DNA of 38,914 nucleotides from Clostridia bacterium (GTDB lineage Bacteria; Bacillota; Clostridia; Christensenellales; Aristaeellaceae): positions 1 through 38,914 of the forward strand of contig JAFUAR010000373.1 of NCBI GenBank assembly GCA_017460585.1, read 5' to 3'. Below the pieces are notes generated by a model. The model ran no database searches and was not told the DNA's origin. It was given only the letters and a program-made list of their open reading frames with translations. This document shows positions 4,044 to 31,580 of this stretch, in pieces. A program made the translations under genes and the position numbers. Numbering within the stretch: the stretch's first letter is position 1; each line of letters starts with the position of its first letter.

Positions 4044-4050
4044 CCTCCCT

Positions 4051-4094: not shown

Positions 4095-4143
4095 ACGCGG
4101 GAGCGTTCACCGGCGAATTTGGGCAATGGAAGGAGAAACGGCA

Positions 4144-11200: not shown

Positions 11201-13100
11201 GCAACGGCGCGATCTGCGAGGCGAAGGTTTGAAGCAGGTTGCGGTTGGGTACCTCGAAGTCGATCTGAGTGGTTTCGCCTTCGGAGGTGTGCAGGTAACC
11301 CGGCTTGGCGGCTACGTTGAATATCAGCCTGCATTCCTTGGGCAGCATTTCCATGCTGGGCGCGAGCATGATGAGCGTCATGCCCAGACGATTGGTGAGC
11401 AGCTGCTTGAGAATCGGCTCGTTTTCCAGCAGGCGATTGTCCGTGCAGAATATAATGTAATGCGGCAGCGGGCGCGCATCCTCGCCTTGCTCCTCGTCCT
11501 GCGAGGAGGAATGCTCCTCCATGCTGGAGCGGCGCATGGTCAATACGTCGCTTACGTGGCTCATTACATCATGAATGGCGCTGGGGCGAGATACGACCAT
11601 ACGCATTTCGCGGTCCTCGCTGGCGAACACGTGCGGCAGCCAGCGCGCCCAGCTCCACTGGGATACTGTGGTTTCGCGCGTGAGCACGGCGATGCGCACA
11701 TCGTGGTAGGAGTGCAGCGAGGCGATTTGCATGAGCAGCCCTTGCGCGAACAACGTGGCCTCGTCGCCGCCCAGTATGCCGACCACGGATTCGGAGCGCA
11801 GCCCTACGGTATACGGCGCGTCGGCGATAATGGAGTATACGTTTTTCAGCCGCTCCGGTTCGTTGCGCAGCGGATCATCTATAATGGAAAGCTTCTGTTT
11901 CGGTACTTCGATTTCGCTGGGCAGGTTTACCTGACCAATGCCCAAACGCACGTGCAGAAAGTCCGAATGCGTGGGCATACGATTCCACAGGCGGTAGGTA
12001 TTGTCTGTGGGCAGCGTAACGCATTCGCCAATGTTGGGATAGGTGTTGACCAGCCGATCGTATTCCTGATTGTTGAGTCCGCGCAGCTGCTGCTCCGTCT
12101 CCTCAATGTATTGTTGATACATTTGTATGCGGCGGGTTTCGTTTTCCGCCTCCTGACGGGCGCGGTAGCGCCGGTTGATGACGCCCCACATGACCGCCAA
12201 AGCCGAGGATGTACCCACCATGACCAGACCCGACGCCATCATAGCGGCGCTTCGACCGGCGGCAACGCCCACCATGGTGCCCGCCATCATGGGCAGCATC
12301 ATAGTGGCGGAGGGACCCAGCTGCTGCCACATGGGCGCGGTCTCCTTCGCCTGCTTGGCGATGGGCGGTTCAATTTCAATGGATTCGGAGTGAGGCTTTT
12401 GCAATATGCGCGGCGCGCGGTGGTATTCGCGGTACAGACTGGGAAGGTGCTCCGGCGGGTTCTGCATGGGGCGAATGGCTTCCGGCTGCGCCTTTTGCAG
12501 CTTGACCTTCTGCAAACTGGCAATCTGATTGAATGCCAGTATGTTGCCCAGATAAATCATTTTCAGACCGGAAGGGAAGGTGAGCACATCGCCAAAGGTG
12601 ATGCGCACGGTGTTGTTCATAATGCGGCGACCGTTCAGATAGGTGCCGTTTACGGATTTATCGGTATATTCGCAGCTGGCGCCGTTGGCGGTGATGTAGC
12701 CGTGCATACCGGAAATATTCTGGTCGATATCGGTCACGACGCACTGCTCGCTGCGCCCGATGGTCACCGATCCGCCATGGAAGGCGTACTTCACGAAGCT
12801 GAGCGATTTGCGGTCCAGCTTAGTGGGAATAATGCTGATGCTGCCGTTGTAGGGCGTGTGCAGCGTATAGCTTTCCTCCAGCGCGATGGGGCGCTCGTTG
12901 CCCGAGGAGCCGCCCGCCCAGCGGAAGCCCGGCGGAGGCAGAAGGAATATGCTCCCGCCCAGCGCGCGCACCTGAAACACGCAGTCCGAGGGCCAGCCGG
13001 ATTCATCCTGCGCGATGGTGGTTTGGCTGGTCCAGTTTTCCGCGTCCGGAAAGTATACGTCCTTAAAGCGGTCGCCGAAAAATAACCAGGCTGCGTACAT
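8202..13100 (-). CDS. essC: EssC / YukB-type T7SS FtsK-SpoIIIE ATPase (1632 aa)
   Basis: N-terminal tandem FHA region (IGRSEQC...ISGMHG...SVNGTYLNG), then two TM helices (about aa 256-308), then three P-loop domains. Walker A motifs are GTTGSGKS (10959-10982), GLAGTGKT and a degenerate GPKKSGLT (8955-8978). Walker B is LIIIVDEF. GAGGAGGAG RBS present. Confidence 0.95.
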   Translation of the reverse strand: MYAAWLFFGDRFKDVYFPDAENWTSQTTIAQDESGWPSDCVFQVRALGGSIFLLPPPGFRWAGGSSGNERPIALEESYTLHTPYNGSISIIPTKLDRKSLSFVKYAFHGGSVTIGRSEQCVVTDIDQNISGMHGYITANGASCEYTDKSVNGTYLNGRRIMNNTVRITFGDVLTFPSGLKMIYLGNILAFNQIASLQKVKLQKAQPEAIRPMQNPPEHLPSLYREYHRAPRILQKPHSESIEIEPPIAKQAKETAPMWQQLGPSATMMLPMMAGTMVGVAAGRSAAMMASGLVMVGTSSALAVMWGVINRRYRARQEAENETRRIQMYQQYIEETEQQLRGLNNQEYDRLVNTYPNIGECVTLPTDNTYRLWNRMPTHSDFLHVRLGIGQVNLPSEIEVPKQKLSIIDDPLRNEPERLKNVYSIIADAPYTVGLRSESVVGILGGDEATLFAQGLLMQIASLHSYHDVRIAVLTRETTVSQWSWARWLPHVFASEDREMRMVVSRPSAIHDVMSHVSDVLTMRRSSMEEHSSSQDEEQGEDARPLPHYIIFCTDNRLLENEPILKQLLTNRLGMTLIMLAPSMEMLPKECRLIFNVAAKPGYLHTSEGETTQIDFEVPNRNLLQTFASQIAPLRVRDAAENAAIPSLVSFLDIYGVRRTEDLDVWRMWTENHTYDGLRSTIGYAAGSQPFILDISDKYHGPHGLIAGTTGSGKSVMLQTYILSLALNYSPDQVQFILIDYKGGGMADAFRTLPHVAGIIDNLQGELVINRALASLNGEIHRRERIFKAHDVSSINDYTQLFGSDPAEPKLPHLIIIVDEFAELKSDQPDFMRELVSASRVGRSLGVHLILATQKPSNSVSDEIWANSRFHLCLRVQTRSDSMEMLKRPDAAYIKGMGRCFIQIGNDELFEQVQTSYSGLAYNPNEPRAEEMPHLLGDTGEAIRVAKKRKSVEEKRKEKTQMDAVLERIREVAGEHDLLHTKQMWLPQLTSQLYFGHMPMAQALFRRGNDYANAPEGVQFLLGMADDVAQQRYIPFTVNLTQMRNLMIVGLAGTGKTTAVQSIVTAIASQYDAEHVQMYILSLTSQTLGNLIAFPQVGDIAFEQDVIEIKRFINMLFEEEQRRSDMFAQVSTDSFIEYNRACRLENKKGVPAIVVFVDRYEQLKNMFANDDFYTARIQQLLREGSGRGIHFIVTALAKNEIPGRLHSFFSGIALQLRERADYTDVLGKRVPYDMPPLMATPGRALGLVGEDNVPYELQIALGGVSIDAPDAPFADLNDIEPYCLNAAFPPFEGLTDVERSARIIAEAKAMDEAWKGARPARIPRIPEEPTLEQFRVVDGFTDAQRSPYQLPIGYDMTKGSLATLDLEKNYSMYVTGPKKSGLTNFLKLTARLFAERGADIHIIGDANWKTLADELGAHLYATEDEIAIFMDMFVREYPGKRRAKREAALAQGKAAARKQALEFKPCVILIDNAERLPRDFNAPRFVKSPVMLAKESEAAAPAAQEAGEPVPQVKTAAELAPGQDPNRNVPAKNYICDVFGQMAGKGDLYNLFLFIAMSSAERMQERSEPLKSLIAQQRGIALGGKFNENDPLGIGAGLPLQSRSKALPSGYGYMLADGKVTQIRVPLTDAEEE

Positions 13101-13150: not shown

Positions 13151-13732
13151 TCAGTAGTGCGCGTATTCCACGTTGAACGCGATGCCAGCGATTTGTAGGC
13201 TGTCGCCCTGACGCATGACCCGGCGCTCGCCCTTGGGCAGGCGTTCGTTGTTGAGCCAAGTGCCGTTGCGCGAGCTGTCGGTTACGTAGCAGAGCTTCTC
13301 CTGTGCGTCGTAATCGATGGTGAGATGCCGACCGGATACGTATTCATCGTGAATCTGGAAATTGCAGCGCTCTGATTGACCGATCACGAAGGGGCTGAGA
13401 TTGACGGAAATAGAGTATTGATTGGAAGCGTTCAACCCTACGAGCGTTACATAGGTGCGCTGCGCATCCAAGTGAACGGGCGGGGTATCCGAGCGCGAGC
13501 TGGGTATATTGCGTTCGCGCGGCGCTTCCTTTTGAAACGCCTGAAACAGCGCGGGCTTGCTGCGCTTCAACGCGCCGATGCCCACCACCAGCGCCAATAT
13601 GAGCAATAGTGAAACGAGGGGCGATCCCAAAAGCAATCCCGCTACAATAATGATGAACAATATCGGCAGCAGAACCGCGATGAGCAGCAGTATCGCCTGT
13701 TTGCGCGAGGGATTGGGATCGGTATTGGGCAT
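13151..13732 (-). CDS. Two-TM membrane protein with C-terminal cytoplasmic FHA domain (193 aa)
   Basis: TM segments AILLLIAVLLPILFIIIVAGLLLG and LVSLLLILALVVGIGAL. FHA region reads FVIGQSERCNFQIHDEYVSGRHLTI...SSRNGTWLNNERL, with Q where the canonical GR arginine sits. Confidence 0.85.
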   Translation of the reverse strand: MPNTDPNPSRKQAILLLIAVLLPILFIIIVAGLLLGSPLVSLLLILALVVGIGALKRSKPALFQAFQKEAPRERNIPSSRSDTPPVHLDAQRTYVTLVGLNASNQYSISVNLSPFVIGQSERCNFQIHDEYVSGRHLTIDYDAQEKLCYVTDSSRNGTWLNNERLPKGERRVMRQGDSLQIAGIAFNVEYAHY

Positions 13733-13781: not shown

Positions 13782-14945
13782 TCAGTAATCGATCTTGATT
13801 AAATGCTCGCTGATTCGAATGGTGGAGCCCTTATGCAGCACGCAGGAGGTATTGCTGATCTGCTTGCCGTCTACAATGGTGCCGTTCGCGGAGTAGTCGC
13901 GCAGCATGAGCTCCCTGCCTTGATAGAATATTTCGCAATGCTTTCTGGAAATGCCGCGGTCGTCCATATTCAACGGGAAGGAGCCTACGTTTCTGCCGAT
14001 CTTGATTGTGTTTCCAATGGGTCGGGAATACTGTTCGGTATGCCCGTGATAGGTAATTTCAAATTGGAGCTCTTTTTCGTTAATAAAGGCGTTTCTGCCG
14101 CCCTTGCGCTGGGAGCCGTTTGAACCGAAGAAATACACCAGCGCGAAAATGATGGCGGCGATCAGCACTATGGCGATGAGTCCCGCCGCGAAGCGGGGAA
14201 GCTCCAAGCCGAATACATCACTATCTTCCGTGAGCCATGCCCGCGCCTTTTCCGTGCCGCTCAAAGGAGCGGGCGTGGGGCTGGGCTCCGGCGTGGGTTC
14301 GGGTTCCGGAGTAGGCATGGAGTTCCAGTCGTCGCGGGAGAGTATGGTCGCCTGAATTTCCGGGGTCAACCCCTTGTTATCCTCGCGTTGGTCGTACGCC
14401 AAAGGATTATAGCGGAAGAAATCGTCCAGCGCTTCTATGGTCGCTTGGTCGTAGATATCGTTCTGCATTCCTTCCTTTATATAGCCCAGCTCCGCAAGCT
14501 TTTTTTGTATGGGCCAAACGCCGCTGCCGCCGTAAACGATGCGCGAATAGACGGGCGCGTCGGAAGCGTCCGGTTCCGGTGTAGAAAGGTTTTGAATGAG
14601 ATTTTGATAGTAGTCGAGCTTTGCCCAAGTCTCCTGAAGAATGCCGCCTTCGTCGTATACCAGCCCCTCGAGGTTGCGGTTGGTATCGCAGCAATTTTTA
14701 ACGGCGTACATGGTCTGGTCGTCCAGAGTGGGGTCGCCCAGCGATTCTACATCGACCGTGGAAAGGTAATAACCGTGCGTGTACAAAAATTCTTTGAGCT
14801 TCATCAGCTCCGGTTTGGCGTTGGAGTACTTTTCCACCGCATATTCTTTCGCGGCAATGGCGGGAAATGAGGTTCCGCAGAAAATGAAAACGAGCAGCAT
14901 GACGGCAATCAGCCGCTTCGCATTTCGATAAGCGTTTTGAAGCAT
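13782..14945 (-). CDS. Signal peptide, 2 peptidoglycan-binding-like repeats, PT linker, TM and cytoplasmic FHA domain (387 aa)
   Basis: Start trimmed to MLQNAYRNAKRLIAVMLLVFIFCGTSFPAIAAKE (GAAGGGG RBS). LKEFLYTHGYY and IQKKLAELGYIKEG..IYDQATIEALDDFFRYN resemble PG_binding_1. Then PTPEPEPTPEPSPTPAP, TM LIAIVLIAAIIFALVYFF and FHA IKIGRNVGS...ISRKHCEI...SANGTIVDG. Confidence 0.85.
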   Translation of the reverse strand: MLQNAYRNAKRLIAVMLLVFIFCGTSFPAIAAKEYAVEKYSNAKPELMKLKEFLYTHGYYLSTVDVESLGDPTLDDQTMYAVKNCCDTNRNLEGLVYDEGGILQETWAKLDYYQNLIQNLSTPEPDASDAPVYSRIVYGGSGVWPIQKKLAELGYIKEGMQNDIYDQATIEALDDFFRYNPLAYDQREDNKGLTPEIQATILSRDDWNSMPTPEPEPTPEPSPTPAPLSGTEKARAWLTEDSDVFGLELPRFAAGLIAIVLIAAIIFALVYFFGSNGSQRKGGRNAFINEKELQFEITYHGHTEQYSRPIGNTIKIGRNVGSFPLNMDDRGISRKHCEIFYQGRELMLRDYSANGTIVDGKQISNTSCVLHKGSTIRISEHLIKIDY

Positions 14946-15006
14946 GGAAAAGACCCCTTCGTATAAAAAAGGTAAGAATATGGCGTTATTAAGGTATATC
15001 AGGCGT

Positions 15007-15035
15007 ATTATAGCATAAAAACAATTAACACACAA
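15007..15035 (-). promoter_or_regulatory. Candidate sigma-A promoter of the FHA-essC operon
   Basis: Minus strand reads TTGTGT (15035-15030), a 17-nt spacer, then TGc-TATAAT (extended -10; TATAAT at 15012-15007). This is about 60 nt upstream of ATG 14945. Confidence 0.55.
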
Positions 15036-15105: not shown

Positions 15106-15172
15106 GATAAACAGTAAAAAGGGCGAAGTATGCTTTTTTTCGAAACGGAGAATTTGGAAAGAGGGATTCTAC

Positions 15173-19108: not shown

Positions 19109-19148
19109 AGCATTGAAGGTTAATCGGCAATCATCATAGCAATGGGCG

Positions 19149-19180
19149 AAGCCGCCCCGGATACAAACGGGGCGGCTTTT
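19149..19180 (+). terminator. Terminator-like hairpin after the 1311-aa gene (possible partial terminator)
   Basis: 11-bp stem AAGCCGCCCCG (19149-19159) / CGGGGCGGCTT (19168-19178) followed by TT. Confidence 0.5.
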
Positions 19181-19201
19181 CCTGAATCGGGGGCGCATGG
19201 A

Positions 19202-20257: not shown

Positions 20258-20329
20258 GCTGCGTACGGGGTAAAGCACCCATGGCGCAACCAGAGGAACC
20301 GATGAATGGATAAGGGAAGGGAAGCTGGA

Positions 20330-23300
20330 ATGAAGAAAATCCTGAAAGCAATGCTGGTTTTGGCGCTCGCCCTCGCGCTGCTGCTGCCCGAATGGGCGCT
20401 GGCAGCGGAATCCGGCTACCTGAGCATTGCCGAAATGCATCAGGACAACGACAATAGCGGCAGGGTCTATCTGTATCTCACCTATGTGGAATACAACTGG
20501 CTGGCTCCGAGGGATAATCTCCATTCCGAGGACTTTTATACCCTGACCATGGATTCAAAGCAGATACCGGTGTACAATCCGGTGCTGTATTCCCGCACGG
20601 GCGGTCGCGTGCACTACGTACTGTGCGTGGATGTATCCAAATCCATTAAGGATACCGAACGCCCCAAGGTGAAGGAAGCGCTCACGAACTTTGTGGATAA
20701 TCTGCAAAGCAACGAGATGGTCACCATTATTACCTTCGGCGATAATGTGCAGACCGTCGCCAATGCCTTGAGCGACAAGAACCAGCTGCGCAGCCGGATC
20801 GATTCCATCGATTGGACCGGCAACACTACGCAGCTGTACGAGGGTGTGAAGACCGCCATGGACGCCGCCAGCGTGAAGCGCATGGAGGACGCTCAGGTGG
20901 GGCGCACCGCCGTAGTGCTCATTACCGACGGCGTAGACGAGACCAGCGAGACCAGCAAATATACCCCGAGCGCGGTGTTGGACGCCATTATCAATACCAA
21001 TGTGCCGGTATATGTGCTGTATTTTGACCGCAGCGGCAAGGATCAGCAGAGCATTACCGAACTGAACAGCTTTGTCAACGCTTCGGGCGGCTTGTTCAAA
21101 ATGCTGGATGCGCCCTCTCTGCAGACCATACTTAAGAATATTGGCGATCTCACGCGCAATTGCGTACAGATTTCCACCCAGCTCGTCAATGAGGGACAGG
21201 GCGCGACGCAGCCCGATTCGGGCTATCCCTTTCAGGTGACGGAGGGCAACGGCAAGAAATCCGCGGAGCATAATTTCATAGTGGACTTCCAGCGCCTGCC
21301 CGATCCTACGCCCGAACCCGATCTCGCCGTAGACGAGACCACCATCGTACCCATTACCGAGGATTTTGAAGCCATCACCGTCCGCACGGAGCCCAACTCC
21401 ACCGTAACCATTTCCCGCAAGGGGCAGACGCTCTATCAGGATACCTCCAACGGTTCGGGCGAGCTGACTTGGCATTTTGACGCGGAGACCGTGAAGCTGC
21501 GCAAGGGCGAGACCATTTCCGTAGACGTGGAGGATCCCTCCCATAACCGGCTGCCGGAGCCTGTAACCGCGGAGGTGGGCGAATCGTCGCGCGAGCAGAT
21601 TACCAAGCTGGAAATCGACGGCATGGACGGCGACAACGTAATTTACGGGTCGAACTTTACCATTACCGGCTACGCCGAGCCCGATGCACAGGTGCTTGTG
21701 AGCTGGGTGAACAACAACGCCGGCGGCGCGCTGCACGAGGATGTCATTTCCGTAAAGAGCAACGGCTACTTTGAGGCGACGCTGGATTATGGTACCTCCA
21801 ATAATCCCGATACCACCATGGCGCGTGGCTATGTGGATGTGAAGTACGCGGATTATCTCGCCTACAGCCGTTGGTCGAGCACGAGCGGGCAGATCGCTTG
21901 GTACCGTGATCCCAAGCCGGAGATTGACGACCATATCGACCGCTTTGAAGTCGATCCCATTACGGAAGATACGGATGTGCTGCGCGCGGATACGGAGGCG
22001 AACTCCACCGTATACGTAAGCTGGCAGGGCTTTGAGGATCATTCGCAGGCGAACGAACAGGGCGTATGGGAATATCCCATTCGCCGCCTCAAGCCGGATA
22101 CGCAGGTGGTGCTCTACGCGATTGATCCCGCGGGCAACCGCAGCGAAAACGTGACCAAGGTGGTCAATCCGTCTACACGCGATAAGATTACCATGAACAT
22201 CTCCGAGCTGGGAGAAGGCGGCACCGTGAATTCGGAAACGCTGACCGTGACCGGCAACGCCGAACCCGGCGAGATAGTGCGCGTTACTTGGATGTCGGAC
22301 AGCGAGCCTGTACCGCGCCCCAAGAAGTGCGAGGTGAATGAATACGGGCACTATCGCGCGGTCTTTACCAACGAGGAGTGCGCTGGCGGCGAGGGATACT
22401 TTACCGCCATTTACGACGACGGCAACGCCAGCAGCAAGCGCGCGGACGATCGGCAGGTGGTGTGGAACAACGCCCCGCCCACGCCCGTGCCCACGGAGGT
22501 ACCCGTAACTGAAGCGCCTACGCCCGTACCCAGTCCCACGCCCAGCGAAGCGCCCACGGCGACTCCCGCACCGACCATTCCGGCAACGCCGGAACCCACG
22601 CCGGAACCTACCGCCGAACCCACGCCGGAGCCCACGGCGACTCCCGCGCCATGGCCGCAGAACTGGATCATCAGTTTTACCGATTATTTCGGCGGACCGG
22701 ACGAGATGCTGGAGAATCCGCGCTTCTGGATACTCGCGGCGGCGGTGCTGCTGTTCATCGCGCTCATCGTGCTGCTGATCGTGCTGCTCGCCAAACGCGG
22801 GCGCAAGCGCACGCGTACGCCCGGTATGGACGCGGCGGAGGATATGCCCCGCAAGGATGGCGGCGCGGCAAGTCAGGCGGGCACCATCCGTCAGGGCGGC
22901 GCGCCGAGCGGACCGGATTCGGGCATGACCCTGCCCAGAAACGCCACGCCTCCCGCAGGCGGATTTGATCTGAATTCTACCATCCCCATGCAGCCTTCGA
23001 CCGGCACGGTGCGCATTGAAAAGAAACAGAATGTAATGCCGACCGGTACGGTGCGCATCCGCAAAAACGGTCCCGCGCCCATTCAGCTGGATATACTGGA
23101 AACGAGGAGCTTCGCGGGCATATCCAATGAACGCACCGCAGCGCTGGCGACGGAGCTGATCGTAGGTCGCGATCAGAGCTGCGCGTTCCCCGTACAGGAT
23201 GAGACCGTGTCGACGCGCCATTTGAAGCTGGAGCGCGATGGTTCGGCGGTGTTCGTTACCGACCTGAACTCCTCCAACGGCACCAAGCTGAACGGGACGC

Positions 23301-23386
23301 CGGTAACCGAAAAGACCCCCTTGAACAGCGGCGATACGCTGGAGATCGGTCGCACGACTCTGTTAATTCGCTTTAACGCGCAATAA
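20330..23386 (+). CDS. Single-pass membrane protein: signal peptide, extracellular vWA head, Ig-like A-B-A-B stalk, PT linker, TM and cytoplasmic FHA (1018 aa)
   Basis: MKKILKAMLVLALALALLLP signal peptide. vWA/MIDAS signatures HYVLCVDVSKSI (D-x-S-x-S), VTIITFGD and AVVLITDGVDET. TM FWILAAAVLLFIALIVLLIVLLA (about 22724-22792). FHA LIVGRDQSCAFPVQDETVSTRHLKL...LNSSNGTKLNG. Confidence 0.88.
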   Translation: MKKILKAMLVLALALALLLPEWALAAESGYLSIAEMHQDNDNSGRVYLYLTYVEYNWLAPRDNLHSEDFYTLTMDSKQIPVYNPVLYSRTGGRVHYVLCVDVSKSIKDTERPKVKEALTNFVDNLQSNEMVTIITFGDNVQTVANALSDKNQLRSRIDSIDWTGNTTQLYEGVKTAMDAASVKRMEDAQVGRTAVVLITDGVDETSETSKYTPSAVLDAIINTNVPVYVLYFDRSGKDQQSITELNSFVNASGGLFKMLDAPSLQTILKNIGDLTRNCVQISTQLVNEGQGATQPDSGYPFQVTEGNGKKSAEHNFIVDFQRLPDPTPEPDLAVDETTIVPITEDFEAITVRTEPNSTVTISRKGQTLYQDTSNGSGELTWHFDAETVKLRKGETISVDVEDPSHNRLPEPVTAEVGESSREQITKLEIDGMDGDNVIYGSNFTITGYAEPDAQVLVSWVNNNAGGALHEDVISVKSNGYFEATLDYGTSNNPDTTMARGYVDVKYADYLAYSRWSSTSGQIAWYRDPKPEIDDHIDRFEVDPITEDTDVLRADTEANSTVYVSWQGFEDHSQANEQGVWEYPIRRLKPDTQVVLYAIDPAGNRSENVTKVVNPSTRDKITMNISELGEGGTVNSETLTVTGNAEPGEIVRVTWMSDSEPVPRPKKCEVNEYGHYRAVFTNEECAGGEGYFTAIYDDGNASSKRADDRQVVWNNAPPTPVPTEVPVTEAPTPVPSPTPSEAPTATPAPTIPATPEPTPEPTAEPTPEPTATPAPWPQNWIISFTDYFGGPDEMLENPRFWILAAAVLLFIALIVLLIVLLAKRGRKRTRTPGMDAAEDMPRKDGGAASQAGTIRQGGAPSGPDSGMTLPRNATPPAGGFDLNSTIPMQPSTGTVRIEKKQNVMPTGTVRIRKNGPAPIQLDILETRSFAGISNERTAALATELIVGRDQSCAFPVQDETVSTRHLKLERDGSAVFVTDLNSSNGTKLNGTPVTEKTPLNSGDTLEIGRTTLLIRFNAQ

Positions 23387-23445: not shown

Positions 23446-26400
23446 ATGAAGCGTGTGTGGATATTATGTCTGGCATTGGCGCTGTTTCTGTTGAGTGCGA
23501 CCGCCTTGGCGGATACGCAGGTGACAGATCTGAGCGGGCTGTTCGGCGGCGCAGGCGCTACGGAAACGCAGACGCTGCAGGCGGACCTGAGCAAGGATCT
23601 GAGCCTTGAATTGTGGGATCTGCCATACGGCGGTCGCTGGATCATTTATTCCGATGATATCCCGCGCTTTGCAGCCAACGGCGGATTGTCCACGGAGATG
23701 AGCACCAGTCAGGAGCTGCATAAGGACAAGATCGATATCTGGGCGGACGAAATGGACGGTCTGGATGAGATCGATCTTGAAGTGAAGCTCAGCCTGAACG
23801 GATACAACAACAATACCCCCGCGATTGTGTGGAAGGGTCATATCGTCAACGACGCCATGGCGGGTCGTAAGACCATTACGCTGGAAGCGATTCGCGTAAG
23901 CAAGCAGGGCGGCGCGGAAATTGTGTTTACAGAACAGGGATTTGCCGAGGGCACGTTTGAATCGAGCGATACCGTTGTAATCGAGCTGGCGCAGGGCGTG
24001 CATTTGGATGAGAGCTCTTTGGGCGCGCCCGTAACGCAAAGTGCGGAGGGCGTGTACGAAATGCCGCTTTCCAATGTATCTTCCGGCGAATATCGCTTTC
24101 AGACGGCGGAAATGGACGCATATGGCGTAAGCTATATGGCGTTTCGCCAGCTCACCATGAGCATAGTTGGCGCTTCGCAGCCGGTAGCGGAAGCGCCAAT
24201 TGTGGAGCAGCCTGCGGAATCTCAGCAAACCGTCGTTTCCGTTTCGCCGGCAGAGGAAGCCACGATTCCGCAAGAAGCGATCGCTCCGGAGACTGACGCG
24301 GCGCAGAGCGCGGCGGATCTTTCCAGCTGGGATTTGAATGCGGGAACGCAGGGCGCTTCCGGTGCAATTTTGGTACAGATCGACCCCGTGAGCGAGGATA
24401 GCGGTGTGATTATTGTGCGCACGGAGGCGTACGCCGAGGTTACGCTCATGCAGGGCGCTGCGGAAATCGATTTGGGCATCGCGGATGGCGAAGGCGTATA
24501 TACGTATAATGTCGCTGAAAACGGGCTGAAGCTGAGCGAGGGTCAGGAGATTCGCGCCCGCGCTTCGGACGGATACGATCGAAGTGAGGAAGCGTCCACA
24601 ACCGTAGGTATGTCGGAACGCGCGTTGATTCGAGTGTCCGTAGACGGCGTGTCCGAAGGGGCGTGCTATAGTCCCGTATTGCAAATCGAGGGCAGCGCAG
24701 ATCCGGATCAAATGATTCGCGTACAGTGGTTCCCAGATGGTTTGACCGCGCCCGAACCTATAGTGGTGCAAGCGGCGGGGAACGGCAGCTTTACCGCGGA
24801 AGTGCGCTTTGACGATGCGCATCCCGCGCTTGAATCGGTGACCGGACACGTGAGCGCGGCATATGCCGACGGGCTCGCCGCCAGCCGTTCGGGCGACAGC
24901 GGTAGTTTCCTATGGGCGCGCGAAGTGCCCGTGCCGCCGGATACGGAGCTGAGCGGACTGCTCGTGCTCCCCGTGACCGAAGACAGCGCTGAAATTGTAG
25001 TGCAAACGGAAGAAAATGCGCACATCGTCATCGCGCAGGATGGTGCGACGCTCGCCGAGGGCGACGCGGATGACAATGGCGATTGGCGTTGGACGCTGCC
25101 GGATGGTTACGCGTTGCCCGCGAAGCAGACGCTTAGCGTGACGGCTACCGACGAGGCGGGCAACAGCGGCAGCGCGGAGGTCGCGGTAGGCGTATCCACC
25201 CGCGAAGCCATCGTGCTGTCCGTGCGCAACGTGGATGGCGCGCAGCATTTGCTGAACCGTGAAACCATGACCGTAGTGGGGCGTTCACAGGAAAACGAGC
25301 CCGTACGCGTGGGCTGGTATACGCCCGAGGGCGTGCTGCTGGCGGAAGAGACCGTGCAGGAAGGCGGAAACTGGAAGGTGGAGCTGGAGGGCGATCTGGA
25401 TACCGACGGAGAGGGCTATGTAGCGGCGGTATACGCCGATGGACGCGCAAAGAGCAAGAGTACGCGTTCGGAATCCTTTACATGGGATCACGCGCTGCCT
25501 ACGCCCGAACCCACCGCGGAGCCCACGCCTGAACCCACCGCGGAACCTACGCCCGAACCTACCGAAGCGCCTACGCCCGAGCCCACCATTCCGCCGGCAA
25601 CGGAAGCGCCCACCGCGGAACCCGAGCCGGAACCCACGGAGGAGCCTGCGCAGGAACCGGATATCGTGGATTTGACGAACGATTCGACGCCTTCGCCGGA
25701 TGCGCCTATTGAAGACGAAGGCTTTATTGAGGAGTGGAAAGAGCGTTTCGAGGATGAACCCATGCTTCTGGTTGGCGCGATTGCCGCTTTGCTGGCGGTA
25801 ATCGGCGGTATTGTCGCTGCAATTGTTCTTTCCGGAAAGAAGCGCAAGGCCGCAAGGCGTAAGCAGGATTTTCTGGTGCGCGCCAGCGAGGATGCGCCGC
25901 GACCGGTGAGCGAACAGTCTGTCAGCCAGACGGTGCGCCAAAATAATCCCGCGGGCGGCGTGCAGGGAACAATAATATCGCCCATAAACGGCGTGACGAA
26001 TGCTGCGCCGCAGCAGACGTTCGTGCCCCAGCCGACCGCGCCCATATCGCATATTCCCACGCCTCCCGCGGGCGGCACGGGAACCACGCGAATCGGGCAG
26101 ATCAATCTGGACCAGACCCGAGAGATTGGCGGAGGCGGCACTGTGCGCCTTGGCACGCAGGCGATTCAAATGAAGTTTGAGGAGCGCAGAGATTTTGCGG
26201 GTGTGCTCAACCACCGCACCGCGCCTTTGGTAGACGGTATGGTGCTGGGGCGCGACGCGGGTTGCGACTTTGTGATTACGGATGAGACCGTGTCGTCCAG
26301 ACACGCGCGCATTACGCGCGAAGGTCCCATGGTATTTGTGGAGGATCTGCATTCGTCCAACGGTACTACGCTGAACGGGCAGGATGTTCTCGCGAAGATG

Positions 26401-26460
26401 GAGCTGCACTCCGGCGACGTGCTGGAGGTTGGCAGAACCGTGTTGAAGGTTCAGTTTTAG
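23446..26460 (+). CDS. Single-pass membrane protein: signal peptide, unknown head, Ig-like A-B-A-B stalk, PT linker, TM and cytoplasmic FHA (1004 aa)
   Basis: MKRVWILCLALALFLLSATALA signal peptide. TM LLVGAIAALLAVIGGIVAAIVLSG (about 25762-25836). FHA MVLGRDAGCDFVITDETVSSRHARI...LHSSNGTTLNG. The C-terminal ~650 aa are colinear with the 20330..23386 product. Confidence 0.88.
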   Translation: MKRVWILCLALALFLLSATALADTQVTDLSGLFGGAGATETQTLQADLSKDLSLELWDLPYGGRWIIYSDDIPRFAANGGLSTEMSTSQELHKDKIDIWADEMDGLDEIDLEVKLSLNGYNNNTPAIVWKGHIVNDAMAGRKTITLEAIRVSKQGGAEIVFTEQGFAEGTFESSDTVVIELAQGVHLDESSLGAPVTQSAEGVYEMPLSNVSSGEYRFQTAEMDAYGVSYMAFRQLTMSIVGASQPVAEAPIVEQPAESQQTVVSVSPAEEATIPQEAIAPETDAAQSAADLSSWDLNAGTQGASGAILVQIDPVSEDSGVIIVRTEAYAEVTLMQGAAEIDLGIADGEGVYTYNVAENGLKLSEGQEIRARASDGYDRSEEASTTVGMSERALIRVSVDGVSEGACYSPVLQIEGSADPDQMIRVQWFPDGLTAPEPIVVQAAGNGSFTAEVRFDDAHPALESVTGHVSAAYADGLAASRSGDSGSFLWAREVPVPPDTELSGLLVLPVTEDSAEIVVQTEENAHIVIAQDGATLAEGDADDNGDWRWTLPDGYALPAKQTLSVTATDEAGNSGSAEVAVGVSTREAIVLSVRNVDGAQHLLNRETMTVVGRSQENEPVRVGWYTPEGVLLAEETVQEGGNWKVELEGDLDTDGEGYVAAVYADGRAKSKSTRSESFTWDHALPTPEPTAEPTPEPTAEPTPEPTEAPTPEPTIPPATEAPTAEPEPEPTEEPAQEPDIVDLTNDSTPSPDAPIEDEGFIEEWKERFEDEPMLLVGAIAALLAVIGGIVAAIVLSGKKRKAARRKQDFLVRASEDAPRPVSEQSVSQTVRQNNPAGGVQGTIISPINGVTNAAPQQTFVPQPTAPISHIPTPPAGGTGTTRIGQINLDQTREIGGGGTVRLGTQAIQMKFEERRDFAGVLNHRTAPLVDGMVLGRDAGCDFVITDETVSSRHARITREGPMVFVEDLHSSNGTTLNGQDVLAKMELHSGDVLEVGRTVLKVQF
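25498..25593 (+). repeat. Four tandem 24-nt repeats encoding (PTPEPTAE)n in the juxtamembrane linker
   Basis: Units at 25498-25521, 25522-25545, 25546-25569 and 25570-25593: cctacgcccgaacccaccgcggag and three close variants. Confidence 0.85.
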
Positions 26461-26540
26461 CGTTTGATCGAAGCATGGAAAGCCGGGGTGGCATCGCTCC
26501 GGCTTTCTATGGAAAATGTACATCGATGGGGGAAACGGGT

Positions 26541-29500
26541 ATGAGGTATGGGCTGAAAGGTTTAGGAATTTTGCTGCTTGCGGTACTGCTGGTTTGCGCG
26601 CCCGCGCTGGGCGAGGAAGCTGCACCGACAAGTGTTCCACTTGCGTCGGTTATAGGCAATATCGAAGCACCAGTACCCGTGAAGCCCCATTATGCCCTCT
26701 ATGATTGGAGCGCCGTGTGCGAATTGTCGGAAGAGCTCTCGCAGGATGCTCCGATTGAATGTGATTTCTCGCAGGATATCCGTTTTGTATTCAACGATAT
26801 ACCGAAAGAATTTGGTATTGAGATAGAAATAGACGGACAGCAGAGGGAACAACTCGAAAGCAGAGAATACACGCTTGCCGTTGGATCTATTCCAACGGAC
26901 AATGTGGTTGTGGCTGTATATCTCGCTGCCTCTGAATGGAGTGAGCCCAAGCCGATTTGGAGGGGCACGCTGCAGAGCGGCGGCGAGATAAAGGATATTC
27001 ATCTGTATTTGCTCTATACCCTGCAGAATGATACCGTACTGGAGGAGAAGGAACCGGTTATAGATGGAAGAATTCCCGTTTCCGCTGAAGCGGAACAGGA
27101 ATCGGTAGAGTTATCCGTGTGGTTGGCAAAAGGGTTGCAACTAGAAGGACCTTTGGCGATCAACTCAGGAAGCGATGGGAACTATACCGTTGTTTGGAAT
27201 AAGAATAATCTGTTCTTTTCACTGTATTCCAACGAGGGCTATGGCGATCAAGACCGCAAATGGGTAGAGCACCGTTACGCATTGGTTGAAGATGGTGAGG
27301 ACAAAATCAGTTCTGAATCCACGATTGCTCCTTCGGATGAATTCACGGATGAACCCAGTGCCTCTCCCGAGCCGCAGGATACGAGCGCGATTGTAGATAC
27401 GGCGTCTCCTTCCCCCGCGCCTACGCCCATACCCGTAGCATTGGAAATTTACTTAAAGGGAAAAGAGAATGCAATTCAGCTGATGCCCTCAATGGATCAG
27501 CGAGTGATCAGCGGAATATATGCGTTGGAGATTCGTACCTCGAGCGATATTGACTGGACACAGGTAAATGTATTGGTTTCAGGCGTTCCGGCAACCATTG
27601 AAGAGATCGACGGCAGCAGAATCGTCGAATTGACTGTGGAACACCATTCCGCAACGGAAATCCAAGTGTTTTATCAAGCCAAACCTCAGGGAACCTATAG
27701 TTTAAAAGGCTATCAGCCAATCCGCATTACGAATAAGGAAGAGGTTACAGAAGAATATCGTCAGGGAAGCAAAAGCGCAGATATTTCGTTTACTATAGAC
27801 GATGGCTATTTGAACGGAAATAAAGATGTCGATATCCGCATTGAAGAGGGATTGGAGGGCGATTTTCTGGTTCCCAAAACCCTCGATAATATGACGCTTA
27901 TTGATTCTGGAAATTATAGCTATACACTGAATATTCCGGAAAGAGTAGAGGGAATCTATACTTTTTCGATTCGATATGTCGCTTCGAGGGAGTACGTCGA
28001 GCCGCGAGAGCAGCTTGAAGGAATTGAGGACGCATCTTCCATTCATCTTACGGTCGATACGAAGGCACCACAGTGCATTGGCGTTCAAATCAACGATACG
28101 GAGATTGATAAATTAAATGAAGCCCTCAAAGCGGAAGTATATGCCAATACGAAACAGGCGGAGGTATCCGTAACCTTCGATGAGTCGGTGGAATTGTATG
28201 TGAACGGCGAAAAGCAGGCGGGTGAAGCCAAAGCGAAGTGGAATATTTCCGTTGATATTCCGCAGGATGGCGCGCCGGTACGAATTTCGGCAAAGGACGG
28301 TTTTGGCAATGAGACCAAAGCGCCTGTGGAAATTGGATTTGATATTATAGACCCAATTGGAAATGTGACGCTAATGGATCAATCGTCCGGAGAGACGCTA
28401 GGCGGCGAATTGCTGGAAGGGAAAAAGGATATTTCGCTCCATATAGAGGGGTCGAAGGGGCATACGCCGGAGGGCAGCTACCATTTTGACGACGAACCGG
28501 AAGAAACCATTAAGCCCGTAAGATCGTCCATAGGCGAGGGGTGGGATGTCTTCATTCCGCTCGAGGGTGTAAGCAATGCGTGTAAGACCCTCACCCTCAC
28601 GCTCGCGGGGGAGGATACGCCCTATAAGTGGATTATCGATTTGGAACCGCCCGAGGCGCAGGTTCAGTCGATTACCGCCGAAGAAGGCGGCAAATCGACT
28701 TACAGTGCGCAGAAGAACGCGCTCACTTGGTTGAGCGGTGAAGCGCTTAGCGTTACGCTGGACAATCCCAAGGGCGATGTTGAGCGCGTCGAGCTGAACA
28801 ATGCGCCGATCTGGGTTCGGGAACAAGGAGGCATTGAGAAGGAATCCTCTTCCCAAATTGAGTTTACCCTAGATGCCGAGCGCGTAAATGGAGCGGAATC
28901 CATTGTCTTTGATCTGTTCGATGAATACAATAATTCCAGCAACACAAAGCCCATCTCTGTACGGGCTTTTGTGCCCGCTCCCATTGAGATTGCCTTGGAA
29001 GAAGACGAACAACAGGTCGCGTTTGGCGGGACAAAGGCTCTCGAACTGAATGGTAGTGCCGAATCCGGTTGGGCGCTGATTGCAAAGCTGGGCGAAGCAG
29101 AGGGAATCTCTATTGCGGTGGATGAAAATGGCGAATGGACGCAGACATTTGAACCGGAGCAGTATCCCGAAAGCGAGACGACGCTGACGCTCTCCTATGA
29201 AAACGGACTGGGAGAGACAAAAGACATTGACGTAACAATTGATCAAACGTGCGAGATTGACTTCCCCGAATCCGTGACCGAAGGGGACGACTTTATCGAA
29301 TTAGAGGCGCTGGAGGACGGCGTTACGGTCATCGTGAAGCTGAATTCTGAAGTTGTATCGCGCTTTGCCGAAGGGGAAGCGGGGGAGGTTCTGCTCACTG
29401 CGGAAGGAAAGAACAAAGTCGAGATCACCCAAAGCGCGAAATTGGGCGATGAATATCTCATCCAAGCGATCGACCAATATGGCAATGAGAAGACGACCGA

Positions 29501-30605
29501 CGAACCCATTCGCGTAGTCGCTAAAGAAGGAGACATTAAGGACTTTGCATTGACTGCCAACGGCAATTCCATAGTAAGCGGAGCGTTCATTCAGTACGAT
29601 GGCGGTCCCATCGCCTTTACGGGCACTCCCAATCCGGAAGGAAGGCTAACCGTGGAAGTGACGAAGGACGGTGCGCAGATCGAAGTATCGGAGCAAACCG
29701 GCGCGTTTGCGCTGGAAAACGCCGAAGACGGCGAATATAGCGTAATGGCGAGGCTCGCGGACTACCAGAATATCCACTCGGAGCCGATCATATTCACCAT
29801 AGACAACACCAAGCCCGTCGTTCAATGCGCCTCCGATATTTCCGACCTCGCGGCGCAGCTCGAGCTTTCCGCCGATGAAGACAGTAAATTCAAAGTGGAA
29901 ATTGATGGAGCGCTCGCGTATGAGAGCGAAGACTTCGAAAACGGAGCGATCGTATCGATCGATTGGGAGAAAGACGTACTTTGGCAGGCGAAGGAGATCG
30001 CCATTATTGCAATGGATCGCGCGGGCAATATTTCCGAAACGAAGAAAGTCGCAATTACGCCCACGGACGCGTACAGAGTATGGCTCGATACCGCGCCGGA
30101 ACGCGTGGAGCAGGGGCAGATGATTACCGTAACGGGTACGCTAGCCTACCGAGGCGCGGATCGACCGACGGTGCAGGCGCAGCTGCTCTCCGCGGAGGAT
30201 AAACCGCTTCGGGACAGCAAGGGCGGCGAGCTTCAACCTGTAGAAGTAGAGTGGGGCGAGGAAGCGCCGGTTAACGAGGCGTCTATTGAAGGAATGCGCG
30301 CCGACCATTTGCAGAAGTTTTCCGCCGCGTTCCGCGCGGAGGACTATCCGAGGGGCGAAGCGAAGGTGCGATTGATCGTGAAAGAGGCGCAGGAGCTCAC
30401 CGATCGGAGCGTGCAAATCGATCTGAACAGCGGAAAGCGCACGCGTTATATCGCCATAATCGCCGCGCTGGGCGTTGCGCTGATCGTAGTGCTGATCGCT
30501 TTGGCAATCGTCAGCAAAAAGATTTCCGCGCTCAAGGACGCGGAGATCGATCGCCGCAGCCGCGCGAGTAACCTGACCATCCGACAGAAGGGCGGTCGCC
30601 CGTAA
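26541..30605 (+). CDS. Large surface protein with signal peptide, repeat-rich ectodomain, C-terminal TM and a 27-aa cytoplasmic tail (1354 aa)
   Basis: Start trimmed to MRYGLKGLGILLLAVLLVCAPALGEE (GGGGGA RBS). TM YIAIIAALGVALIVVLIALAIV, then tail SKKISALKDAEIDRRSRASNLTIRQKGGRP. Visibly lower GC than neighbouring genes. Confidence 0.8.
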   Translation: MRYGLKGLGILLLAVLLVCAPALGEEAAPTSVPLASVIGNIEAPVPVKPHYALYDWSAVCELSEELSQDAPIECDFSQDIRFVFNDIPKEFGIEIEIDGQQREQLESREYTLAVGSIPTDNVVVAVYLAASEWSEPKPIWRGTLQSGGEIKDIHLYLLYTLQNDTVLEEKEPVIDGRIPVSAEAEQESVELSVWLAKGLQLEGPLAINSGSDGNYTVVWNKNNLFFSLYSNEGYGDQDRKWVEHRYALVEDGEDKISSESTIAPSDEFTDEPSASPEPQDTSAIVDTASPSPAPTPIPVALEIYLKGKENAIQLMPSMDQRVISGIYALEIRTSSDIDWTQVNVLVSGVPATIEEIDGSRIVELTVEHHSATEIQVFYQAKPQGTYSLKGYQPIRITNKEEVTEEYRQGSKSADISFTIDDGYLNGNKDVDIRIEEGLEGDFLVPKTLDNMTLIDSGNYSYTLNIPERVEGIYTFSIRYVASREYVEPREQLEGIEDASSIHLTVDTKAPQCIGVQINDTEIDKLNEALKAEVYANTKQAEVSVTFDESVELYVNGEKQAGEAKAKWNISVDIPQDGAPVRISAKDGFGNETKAPVEIGFDIIDPIGNVTLMDQSSGETLGGELLEGKKDISLHIEGSKGHTPEGSYHFDDEPEETIKPVRSSIGEGWDVFIPLEGVSNACKTLTLTLAGEDTPYKWIIDLEPPEAQVQSITAEEGGKSTYSAQKNALTWLSGEALSVTLDNPKGDVERVELNNAPIWVREQGGIEKESSSQIEFTLDAERVNGAESIVFDLFDEYNNSSNTKPISVRAFVPAPIEIALEEDEQQVAFGGTKALELNGSAESGWALIAKLGEAEGISIAVDENGEWTQTFEPEQYPESETTLTLSYENGLGETKDIDVTIDQTCEIDFPESVTEGDDFIELEALEDGVTVIVKLNSEVVSRFAEGEAGEVLLTAEGKNKVEITQSAKLGDEYLIQAIDQYGNEKTTDEPIRVVAKEGDIKDFALTANGNSIVSGAFIQYDGGPIAFTGTPNPEGRLTVEVTKDGAQIEVSEQTGAFALENAEDGEYSVMARLADYQNIHSEPIIFTIDNTKPVVQCASDISDLAAQLELSADEDSKFKVEIDGALAYESEDFENGAIVSIDWEKDVLWQAKEIAIIAMDRAGNISETKKVAITPTDAYRVWLDTAPERVEQGQMITVTGTLAYRGADRPTVQAQLLSAEDKPLRDSKGGELQPVEVEWGEEAPVNEASIEGMRADHLQKFSAAFRAEDYPRGEAKVRLIVKEAQELTDRSVQIDLNSGKRTRYIAIIAALGVALIVVLIALAIVSKKISALKDAEIDRRSRASNLTIRQKGGRP

Positions 30606-30626: not shown

Positions 30627-31580
30627 ATGGGTCTGAAAATAGATACCGCCGTATACAGCCATATCGGGCGGCGCAAGAATAACGAGGATAATTTCTTTTT
30701 GGACGGGCTCTATATGGAGCGCGACCAAATGAACAAGGGCGGTCAATACCACGCCGTGAAGAAGGGCGACGAGCAGATCTACGCCGTTTGCGACGGTATG
30801 GGCGGCGCGGAGTTCGGCGAGGAGGCCTCTTTGCGCGCGGTGCAGCGCCTGAAGGAATACAAAGAAAAGTGCCGTCAGCCGGACAACACGGGCAATCTCA
30901 ACCAAATGATTGACGAGGCGTCCCGCTGGATTGACGATATTTCTCTCGCCAAGGGTATGGAGTCCGGCTCGTCCGGCTCTACCATCGCCATGCTCATTAT
31001 GAAGGATTGGTATTTCCGCACGGTGAACGTGGGCGATAGCCGCGTATATCGCCTGCGCGGGGGCTTGCTGGAGCGCATGACCAAGGATGATTCCGAGGTA
31101 CAGCAAATGGTGGATCGCGGCGAGATTACTTTGGATCAGGCTTGGCAGCATCCGCGCAAGAACGTGATCACCCGCCACTTGGGTATGCCCATGGAAGGGG
31201 AGGCGTTGATGCCTTCGGTATCCATGCGCTTGGATTTGAACCAAGGCGACCGCTTTCTGATCTGTTCGGATGGTTTGAGCGATTCGCTGCACGATTCTGT
31301 CATTCGCAGAATTCTTACCGAACAGCATACCCCGCAGGCAACCGCGGCGCAGCTGGTGCGCACGGCGCTTTCGGAAGCGGACAACATGGGCGTGGCATCG
31401 GATAATATTACCGTAATTGTACTGGATGTGCTGGAGGCGGGCGGACAGGATGCGGATGTGAAGCGCATTCGCAAGCTTTCCGCGGCGCGCGCGGGTTTGG
31501 CGGCGGCGAGCGTGCTGCTGGCGGGCGGAATCGGGTACGAGGTATTCCAGCTCATTCAATTTCTGAATAGTTCCTATTGA
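30627..31580 (+). CDS. PP2C (PPM) Ser/Thr phosphatase with C-terminal membrane anchor (317 aa)
   Basis: Motifs GRRKNNEDNF, AVCDGMGGAEFGEEAS, GSTIAM, VNVGDSRVY, ICSDGL and DNITVIVLDV. C-terminal hydrophobic segment GLAAASVLLAGGIGYEVFQLIQFL. GGGGGAG RBS present. Confidence 0.9.
   Translation: MGLKIDTAVYSHIGRRKNNEDNFFLDGLYMERDQMNKGGQYHAVKKGDEQIYAVCDGMGGAEFGEEASLRAVQRLKEYKEKCRQPDNTGNLNQMIDEASRWIDDISLAKGMESGSSGSTIAMLIMKDWYFRTVNVGDSRVYRLRGGLLERMTKDDSEVQQMVDRGEITLDQAWQHPRKNVITRHLGMPMEGEALMPSVSMRLDLNQGDRFLICSDGLSDSLHDSVIRRILTEQHTPQATAAQLVRTALSEADNMGVASDNITVIVLDVLEAGGQDADVKRIRKLSAARAGLAAASVLLAGGIGYEVFQLIQFLNSSY

Follow-up and report, generated by a model that had tools for sequence, protein, structure and literature searches.

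FHA domains bind phosphothreonine (pThr) and not phosphoserine (PMC3953482, PMC4157861), and the residue three positions after the threonine (+3) is the main determinant of their specificity (PMC4157861). Rv1747 of Mycobacterium tuberculosis is an ATP-binding cassette (ABC) transporter with two FHA domains joined by a disordered linker that contains pT152 and pT210; phosphorylation leads to intra- and intermolecular association and to clustering (PMC8339232). In the T6SS (type VI secretion system) of Agrobacterium tumefaciens, TssL phosphorylated at Thr14 (TssL-pT14) binds Fha, activating secretion (PMC3953482). The Esr pathway of Schaalia odontolytica (bioRxiv 10.64898/2026.09.08.750141) contains an Esx-linked FHA protein, EsrG1, with pT152 in a disordered region (PMC13622651). 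Garrett, Higginson and Palmer (2024) discuss T7SSd, T7SSe and T7SSj, variant type VII secretion systems (T7SS), in passages that raise threonine-phosphorylation control as a possibility (PMC11217815). The present analysis deals with a stretch of 38,914 nucleotides (nt) from a Clostridia bacterium (contig JAFUAR010000373.1 of assembly GCA_017460585.1), called the window below, and with a short threonine-centred motif that is repeated in the cytoplasmic linkers of two FHA-containing membrane proteins encoded in it. The control of T7SS firing in Gram-positive bacteria is, to our knowledge, largely unknown.

The locus resembles T7SSe and T7SSj as these are set out in the passages on T7SS variants: it contains EssC (TsxC) with an FHA domain of pThr-binding consensus, a kinase (TsxD), a PPM phosphatase (TsxF), an immunoglobulin (Ig)-rich protein (TsxI) and WXG100 proteins (PMC11217815). 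The window's counterpart of TsxB, the protein of T7SSe and T7SSj with a YukD-like ubiquitin fold, is only a sub-threshold YukD match of 83 residues. None of the FHA proteins of the window has a Pfam match to DUF6382, that is, there is no DUF6382-FHA protein of the TsxJ type. Furthermore, the same passages do not mention proteins in which a vWA domain or a peptidoglycan (PG)-binding domain is joined through a transmembrane (TM) helix to an FHA domain, nor a phospho-acceptor motif. Without TsxJ and with the extra vWA-TM-FHA and PG-binding-TM-FHA components, the locus thus appears to be a further T7SS variant. That the kinases, phosphatases and FHA domains of such variants act by threonine phosphorylation has, in those passages, been speculation so far (PMC11217815), and the motifs described here make it testable. 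They are concrete candidate sites: three invariant threonines on each receptor and one on the tail of a partner protein, together with five reader domains.

Threonine motifs in the cytoplasmic linkers

The principal motif carrier consists of a signal peptide, a vWA domain, Ig-like repeats, a Pro/Thr-rich stalk, a TM helix, a linker of about 96 residues and, at the C terminus, an FHA domain. The vWA domain comes after the signal peptide and is therefore extracellular. An initial annotation of the window had described duplicated G-T-V-R-[I/L] motifs in this linker and in that of a paralog, and its reading of both sequences is borne out by translation: the linker of the vWA-FHA protein (20306-23386, plus strand) reads ...NATPPAGGFDLNSTIPMQPSTGTVRIEKKQNVMPTGTVRIRKNG... 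and that of the paralog encoded next to it (23446-26460) reads ...TPPAGGTGTTRIGQINLDQTREIGGGGTVRLGTQ... The two proteins are 31% identical over 750 residues and their N-terminal domains differ. Each linker contains a third copy of the motif, nearer to the membrane, which the annotation had missed. The three copies are called juxtamembrane, proximal 1 and proximal 2 (Table 1). Proximal motif 2 lies about 11 residues ahead of the first FHA strand; in the AlphaFold2 model described below, the FHA fold begins 8 residues after it. The repetition is not a consequence of linker composition. Composition-preserving shuffles of each linker predict 0.02-0.05 matches to T[VIT]R[ILQ] where three are observed (p <= 1.5e-5), and 0.01 matches to GT.R[IL] where two are observed (p < 1e-4).

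The motifs are conserved throughout the family. The family set comprises 16 cytoplasmic regions that are 32-48% identical to the window protein. The relatives came from an exhaustive profile search, in which they matched over the linker plus FHA domain and from which ten more were fetched and used, and from genome contigs, which contributed the loci L001 and L002. They have the same architecture: a signal peptide, a vWA domain, from zero to many Ig-like repeats, a PT-rich stalk, a TM helix, the linker and the FHA domain. Their linkers can be aligned only at the motifs. The invariant or nearly invariant (15 of 16) linker columns of the query are T31, G71, T72, R74, G85, T86 and V87; taken over the sites, the conserved residues are the three threonines with their +2 Arg and -1 Gly.

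The juxtamembrane site lies 28-34 residues C-terminal of the TM helix. Its threonine, present in all 16 sequences, is preceded by Gly in 13 and followed by Val (7) or Ile (6) at +1, by Arg (14) at +2, and by Gln (6), Lys (3), Arg (2) or Asp (2) at +3. At proximal site 1 the threonine is again found in 16 of 16, Gly at -1 in 15, Val (13) or Thr (3) at +1, Arg at +2 in every sequence, and Ile (10), Leu (5) or Met (1) at +3. Proximal site 2 follows after 14-20 residues and lies at a short and constant distance, 47-54 residues, N-terminal of the FHA sequence DExVS. It has Thr in 16, Gly at -1 in 15, Val (15) or Ile (1) at +1, Arg (14) or Leu (2) at +2, and Ile (12), Leu (3) or Met (1) at +3. Conservation of the linker threonines in homologues, proposed as a check in the initial annotation, is thus complete: Thr occupies 48 of the 48 site positions and Ser none. 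In the 16 linkers G-T-x-R occurs 46 times versus once for G-S-x-R, and T-x-R 61 times versus six for S-x-R; the overall Thr:Ser ratio is only about 1.4:1. Looser G-T-x-R copies bring the number in some family proteins to five or six.

The annotation had also proposed Ile or Leu at +3, in keeping with a common FHA preference. This rule holds for the proximal pair, where Ile, Leu or Met is found in 32 of 32 cases, and fails for the juxtamembrane copies and for the related copies on the tail of the Ig-rich protein described below, which have Gln, Lys, Arg, Asp or Ser. Arg or Lys at +2, which the annotation did not mention, is the most constant flanking residue overall. We conclude with high confidence that the repeats are functionally constrained, Thr-centred linear motifs.

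Structure prediction supports the description of the motifs as linear. AlphaFold2 was given the cytoplasmic region of the window protein with the 16-row family alignment, run without the L001 and L002 rows. From model residue 97 onwards it returned an FHA sandwich predicted with confidence, at a predicted local distance difference test (pLDDT) score of about 97, whereas model residues 1-90 are coil without secondary structure at a pLDDT of about 50. The block that contains proximal motif 2 reaches about 62. The coil and the low scores place the motifs in a disordered tether; they are therefore linear motifs and not strands of a fold.

Within the loci fetched, the paired motif is confined to this family. 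These loci contain 225 FHA-like domains, and the pair occurs upstream of the domain only in the six family members present as loci; the one unrelated match forms a strand within the fold of another FHA domain. The idea that FHA domains generally have the motif as an N-terminal extension is thereby rejected. A word-indexed protein search with the 197-residue cytoplasmic region as the query found only two short metagenome fragments, and the same type of search with the 16-sequence profile gave eight matches, few of them new. The scan of genome contigs yielded 80 loci, in which the only true relatives are L001 and L002. Among the matches listed for the metagenome scan (80 loci), nearly all cover the FHA domain only, no family member was recognised and none has the paired motif.

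Degenerate versions of the motif accompany the intact ones. The linker of the vWA-FHA protein contains N-S-T-I-P-M (22973-22990) and that of the paralog Q-G-T-I-I-S (25963-25980); decayed copies in relatives read GTVNV, GTISI and GTINR. Such copies suggest turnover of repeat units within the linker.

At the DNA level, the two proximal motifs of the vWA-FHA gene were said to be near-identical 18-mers (23000-23017 and 23042-23059). The similarity is real, with 16 of 18 nt matching, and a direct repeat (22998-23016 and 23040-23058) is identical in 18 of 19 nt, but it is not independent of the peptide. Identical hexapeptides encoded with the codon usage of the window are predicted to share 14.1 of 18 bases, so the DNA similarity follows from the peptide and adds nothing to it. 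A recent tandem duplication as the source of the repeat was rejected, because codon usage suffices to explain it and the orthologues carry both copies. The annotation further noted a TPPAGG block common to the two linkers. The two paralogs do share the block more than chance predicts (p ~0.002 by shuffling), but it is found in no other family member; it was rejected as a family feature and is therefore a relic of paralogy.

Candidate readers, writer and eraser in the type VII secretion locus

The coordinates of the motifs, of the proteins that carry them and of the proteins that might act on them are collected in Table 1.

Table 1. Features of the window that bear on the threonine motifs (TM, transmembrane; PG, peptidoglycan; aa, amino acids)
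Feature	Position	Strand	Details
vWA-Ig-TM-linker-FHA membrane protein gene	20306..23386	+	1026 aa; translation, Pfam VWA, Big_6 and FHA matches
Metal-ion-dependent adhesion site (MIDAS) motif in vWA domain	20630-20644	+	DVSKS (D-x-S-x-S)
Single TM helix, aa 807-829	22724..22792	+	hydrophobic stretch FWILAAAVLLFIALIVLLIVLLA, then KRGRKR
Predicted disordered cytoplasmic linker, aa 830-925	22793..23080	+	G/P/A/S/T-rich; AlphaFold2 coil
Juxtamembrane motif G-T-I-R-Q	22880..22894	+	within AGTIRQ; Thr860, codon 22883-22885
TPPAGG block	22946..22963	+	second copy 26059-26076 in paralog; 16/18 nt identical
Proximal motif 1, G-T-V-R-I	23003..23017	+	STGTVRI; G900-I904; Thr901, codon 23006-23008
Proximal motif 2, G-T-V-R-I	23045..23059	+	PTGTVRI; G914-I918; Thr915, codon 23048-23050
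C-terminal FHA domain, aa 926-1023	23081..23374	+	Pfam FHA E = 3e-17; AlphaFold2 pLDDT ~97
Paralog gene	23446..26460	+	1004 aa; non-vWA N-terminal domain, Ig-like repeats, TM helix, linker, FHA
Paralog juxtamembrane motif Q-T-V-R-Q	25927..25941	+	within SQTVRQ; Thr829
Paralog proximal motif 1, G-T-T-R-I	26080..26094	+	GTGTTRI; Thr880
Paralog proximal motif 2, G-T-V-R-L	26137..26151	+	GGGTVRL; Thr899
Ig-rich TsxI-like protein	26475..30605	+	signal peptide, C-terminal TM helix, ~30-aa cytoplasmic tail; weak Big_13 and Big_7
Tail motif L-T-I-R-Q	30573..30587	+	Thr1368, codon 30576-30578; ~22 aa past TM helix
PP2C/PPM phosphatase, proposed eraser	30627..31580	+	probable C-terminal membrane anchor; Pfam PP2C_2
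Receptor-type Hanks Ser/Thr kinase, proposed writer	31610..38683	+	2357 aa; Pfam Pkinase E = 3e-32
EssC (T7SS FtsK/SpoIIIE ATPase), candidate reader	8202..13100	-	N-terminal FHA at 12576-12767
193-aa two-TM FHA protein	13151..13732	-	FHA 13190-13387
417-aa FHA membrane protein, candidate reader	13782..15035	-	PG-binding-like ectodomain; cytoplasmic FHA 13812-14006

By its gene content, the window is a T7SS locus. EssC scores 964 bits against TIGR03928 (cut-off 778), WXG100 matches lie at 1197-1661, 1698-2024, 2871-3164 and 3382-3708, with four to six WXG100-like genes overall, and a DUF4176 gene is present. The YukD-like product of 83 residues (~6671-6922, minus strand) has E = 5e-4 and 21 bits, which is under the gathering score of 27; a syntenic 83-residue gene in L163 also gives a weak YukD match. 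The 193- and 417-residue FHA membrane proteins adjoin EssC. The order vWA-FHA, Ig-rich protein, PP2C, kinase is found in seven loci (the window, L001, L002, L164, L165, L166 and L167), and EssC-FHA, both other FHA proteins, LytTR and YukD occur together in four (the window, L001, L163 and L167). WXG100 genes are annotated in the window and in L167.

A partner protein without an FHA domain also carries the core of the motif. The cytoplasmic tail of the Ig-rich protein ends ...SNLTIRQKGGRP, and its threonine, which had been put forward as a candidate site, turns out to be invariant in all seven loci; the tails read LTIRQ, LTIRK, LTIKK, MTIKQ, LTIRK, LTISR and LTVRS, with the consensus L-T-[IV]-[RKS]-x. 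Its distance of about 22 residues from the membrane resembles that of the juxtamembrane site. A word-indexed homologue search with the C terminus of the Ig-rich protein gave no matches.

Five FHA domains are detectable by sequence in the window, one fewer than the six counted in the initial annotation. Their Pfam FHA scores are 63 bits (vWA-FHA protein), 67.5 (paralog), 51 (417-residue protein), 58 (193-residue protein) and 40 (EssC), compared to a cut-off of 20.7. A second FHA domain in the N terminus of EssC was not matched when this region was compared by hhalign with the FHA alignment, and a single-sequence AlphaFold2 model of EssC residues 1-235 is too poor (mean pLDDT 43) to judge such a domain. 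The closest solved structure to the FHA domain of the vWA-FHA protein is the pThr-binding FHA domain of Mycobacterium tuberculosis FhaA/Rv0020c (3po8/3poa/3oun). When aligned to FhaA (3po8), the GR, S-x-x-H and N-G(-T) elements are intact in the vWA-FHA protein, the paralog, the 417-residue protein and EssC. At least four FHA domains of the locus thus look competent to bind pThr. The 417-residue protein has the full Arg-Ser-Arg triplet and no conserved Thr motif. After the TM helix of this protein, the window has a Ser version of the motif, G-S-Q-R-K, and L001 (5561-6820, minus strand) has G-S-V-R-K; this version was rejected, since it is absent from L163 and L167. In the 193-residue protein the pThr-contacting Gly-Arg is replaced by Gly-Gln, and the orthologues have Gly-Arg (L001) or Gly-Asn (L163); this protein may be a degenerate reader or a pThr-independent one.

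The FHA domain of EssC itself contains N-T-V-R-I in a predicted late beta-strand (12600-12611, minus strand; residues 164-167). The corresponding segment reads NTVRL in L163 and NTVRV in L167, and the four-residue core is the same as in the linker motifs. The resemblance is probably a coincidence, because the segment sits in a folded strand.

The proposed writer has an N-terminal cytoplasmic kinase domain (31682-32542), followed by a TM helix and an Ig-like ectodomain of about 2000 residues. The kinase motifs LGRGNSG, ALK, HLDIKPDN, DFG and APE are all legible. The catalytic loop, H-L-D-I-K-P-D-N (window position 32120, kinase residues 171-178), is that of a non-RD kinase and reads HLDVKPEN in L001 and HLDVKPDN in L002. 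Non-RD kinases usually need no activation-loop phosphorylation. The juxtamembrane sequence SSRTLPI of the kinase (32606-32626) had been listed among the possible sites. It was rejected as a conserved site, since the orthologues have SRRSKLVPI, HKRSKLLPV, SNNLLKLL, SKNLGLI and HGKLLPM, and only L164 keeps the threonine (SSSKTLPI).

The proposed eraser, the PP2C protein, has an NCBIfam Stp1/IreP-like match that is under the curated cut-off. A hydrophobic C-terminal helix is kept in the window, L001 and L165-L167. The phosphatase is thus probably anchored in the membrane, so the eraser would sit beside the membrane-proximal Thr sites.

Several other genes of the locus are shared with its relatives. 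A LytTR-domain regulator adjoins essC in the window (7422-8168, minus strand), in L163 (8176-8928) and in L167 (2265-3014), which suggests a transcriptional input besides the kinase. It is followed by a conserved protein of about 160-180 residues without a known family and then by the YukD-like gene. In L164 (112-3380), L166 (5578-9101) and L168 (117-3524), the vWA-FHA gene is preceded by genes for three proteins: an RCC1 beta-propeller protein, which is membrane-anchored, one that is ZorA-like/MotA-like, and one that is OmpA/MotB-like and contains a long coiled coil. This trio resembles a stator-like, ion-driven unit adjoining the T7SS kinase module. Upstream of the vWA-FHA gene, the window has only the RCC1 protein of the trio (19142-20257), plus a 1343-residue MBG-domain protein (15077-19108).

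A 608-residue protein (4006-5832, plus strand) has an EspC/WXG-like helical N terminus and a Gly-rich C-terminal half. Its gene is flanked by small WXG100-like genes and followed by those for a membrane protein and the DUF4176 protein. The region is likely a T7SS effector cassette and the protein a substrate. The antisense open reading frame (ORF) at 20555-23221, opposite the vWA-FHA gene, is in all likelihood an artefact of the high G+C content of coding sequence, because the sense frame has domain matches along its length. No Rfam RNA family is found anywhere in the window.

Proposed mechanism and its alternatives

The reading that we favour, with moderate confidence, is that the kinase phosphorylates the conserved motifs, that FHA domains then bind them, and that this drives assembly of the secretion system. 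It draws on sequence conservation, structural modelling and analogy. From these we infer phosphorylation, the pairing of FHA domains with sites and an effect on secretion. On sensing a surface cue, the membrane Ser/Thr kinase with its huge ectodomain would phosphorylate the invariant threonines; both the vWA-FHA proteins and the Ig-rich protein, through its tail, would be substrates. The pThr motifs would then be bound by the carrier's own FHA domain, in trans or in cis, by the PG-binding FHA protein and by EssC. Multivalent clustering would connect the receptors at the surface with the EssC ATPase and license T7SS assembly or activity, and the membrane-anchored PP2C would reset the switch. 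With at least three sites and one reader on each receptor, and a site but no reader on the partner tail, the arrangement suggests multivalent assemblies in trans. For the proximal sites, a closed state in cis, like that of GarA, may also exist.

The total exclusion of Ser is the strongest sequence-level argument for reading by FHA domains, because these distinguish pThr from phosphoserine. A requirement imposed by a kinase only would usually tolerate Ser. Many FHA domains select pT-x-x-(I/L/D), and the hydrophobic +3 residue of the proximal pair agrees with this common preference. The invariant Arg at +2 and the Val or Ile at +1 are provisionally ascribed to the specificity of the kinase.

Several points weigh against the phosphorylation-dependent assembly just described. 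The +3 residue is polar in the tails (Gln, Lys, Arg or Ser), and the juxtamembrane copies have Gln, Lys, Arg, Asp and others. Arg at +2, the most invariant flanking residue, is not explained by the usual +3 rule of FHA domains and may reflect kinase specificity or something else. Two members, P0116 and P0137, have Leu in place of this Arg in proximal motif 2. AlphaFold2 docked no motif onto the FHA domain. The short fixed distance between motif 2 and the FHA fold would also suit a structural or cis-regulatory role. Finally, the family has so far been found in uncultured Clostridia only.

Two other explanations accept that the motifs are functional. In one of them the motifs work without phosphorylation, as a structural element that augments a beta-sheet. 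The paired copies, 14-20 residues apart, would form a beta-hairpin on a partner, for which the edge of an FHA sandwich, the YukD-like ubiquitin fold and EssC are candidates. T-V-R-I is indeed beta-prone, with alternating polar and hydrophobic residues, the spacings from motif 1 to motif 2 and from motif 2 to the FHA fold are fixed, and the pLDDT score rises to about 62 over motif 2. AlphaFold2, however, gives no strand for either motif, and T-[VI]-R is retained in the juxtamembrane and tail copies, which have a polar +3 residue and are far from any FHA fold. Absolute exclusion of Ser is not expected of a beta-strand, and no evident substrate would be left for the kinase and phosphatase that are conserved together with the motifs. 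We consider beta-augmentation quite unlikely. The other explanation, to which we likewise give a low probability, is that the threonines are kinase substrates but not FHA ligands: phosphorylation would alter the charge or conformation of the linker or engage another partner, while the FHA domains would bind, for example, the activation loop of the kinase. The invariant +2 Arg and the +1 Val or Ile resemble the signature of a kinase, and the juxtamembrane and tail sites lack the hydrophobic +3 residue. Kinases of this class generally accept Ser, however, and Ser is absent; the proximal pair has Ile, Leu or Met at +3 in each of 32 cases; and the motif carriers themselves bear a canonical FHA domain in a locus with at least four readers that appear competent.

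The remaining explanation, that the repeat is functionless and arose by chance in low-complexity sequence or by recent local duplication, is almost certainly wrong, and we count it as already refuted. The linker is compositionally biased and the DNA repeat is close (18/19 nt), but the shuffles give p <= 1.5e-5, the DNA identity is near that predicted from codon bias (16 versus 14.1 of 18), and both copies are present in all 16 relatives despite their divergence.

FHA-dependent assembly, the favoured reading, can be carried further, to a version that is unlikely as a whole. Here the vWA-FHA receptor would be a self-reading, multi-site phospho-scaffold, in which activation of the kinase where the surface makes contact would trigger FHA-pThr polymerisation of the receptors into a membrane cluster or condensate that licenses the T7SS, and the two classes of site would form a wiring code. 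Sites with a hydrophobic +3 residue, beside the FHA fold, would mediate contacts between receptors, and those with a polar +3 residue, which are kept at a fixed distance from the membrane and are also present on the Ig-rich tail, would bring in EssC as well as the PG-binding FHA protein. If true, this would mean that gut and rumen Clostridia have a T7SS variant, so far unclassified, that is licensed spatially.

Comparison with known phosphothreonine switches

A text search of the literature for the peptide strings gave nothing relevant. The motif and the protein family are absent from the literature searched, and together they appear as a new variant of a known regulatory logic, conceptually an incremental one. 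The family itself can be described as integrin-like bacterial receptors, with an extracellular MIDAS-containing vWA domain, an Ig stalk, a TM helix and a putatively phospho-regulated tail.

The Esr pathway shares many components with the locus: Ig-repeat and beta-propeller surface proteins, a vWA protein, a kinase/phosphatase pair, an FHA protein with a Thr in a disordered region, and a link to Esx or the T7SS. The RCC1 beta-propeller protein encoded beside the vWA-FHA gene parallels the beta-propeller sensors of Esr. However, Esr is actinobacterial and MoxR-dependent, and its FHA protein is cytoplasmic and has a pseudophosphatase domain, whereas the window encodes an extracellular vWA domain and an FHA protein anchored in the membrane. 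The transcriptional output of Esr has been characterised. Sensing systems of the vWA-MoxR ternary and Esr kind pair a MoxR AAA+ ATPase with a vWA protein in the cytoplasm. No MoxR family member was found among the 19 large ORFs of the window scanned with Pfam, in which the only AAA-type matches are those of EssC; the smaller ORFs were not all scanned.

In the T6SS, the pathway of PpkA, PppA and Fha likewise gates secretion by an FHA protein together with a membrane kinase and a phosphatase of the PP2C type, and there too the Thr belongs to a cytoplasmic part of a bitopic membrane component. The window differs in that it encodes a Gram-positive T7SS with several FHA readers, including the secretion ATPase, and several sites per substrate, and in that the substrate itself carries a reader.

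Like Rv1747 and PknF, the window combines an FHA domain with several threonines in an adjacent disordered linker and has a membrane kinase in the same locus, as Rv1747 has its cognate kinase in its operon. The likeness is one of analogy and not of membership, because the carrier in the window spans the membrane once, has a single FHA domain and a vWA/Ig ectodomain outside the cell, and lacks ABC domains. Furthermore, the sites in the window, known here from sequence, are repeats of G-T-V-R-[ILM] in a T7SS locus with a dedicated PP2C. If the clustering model is true, the logic of Rv1747 and of the T6SS phospho-switch extends to type VII secretion.

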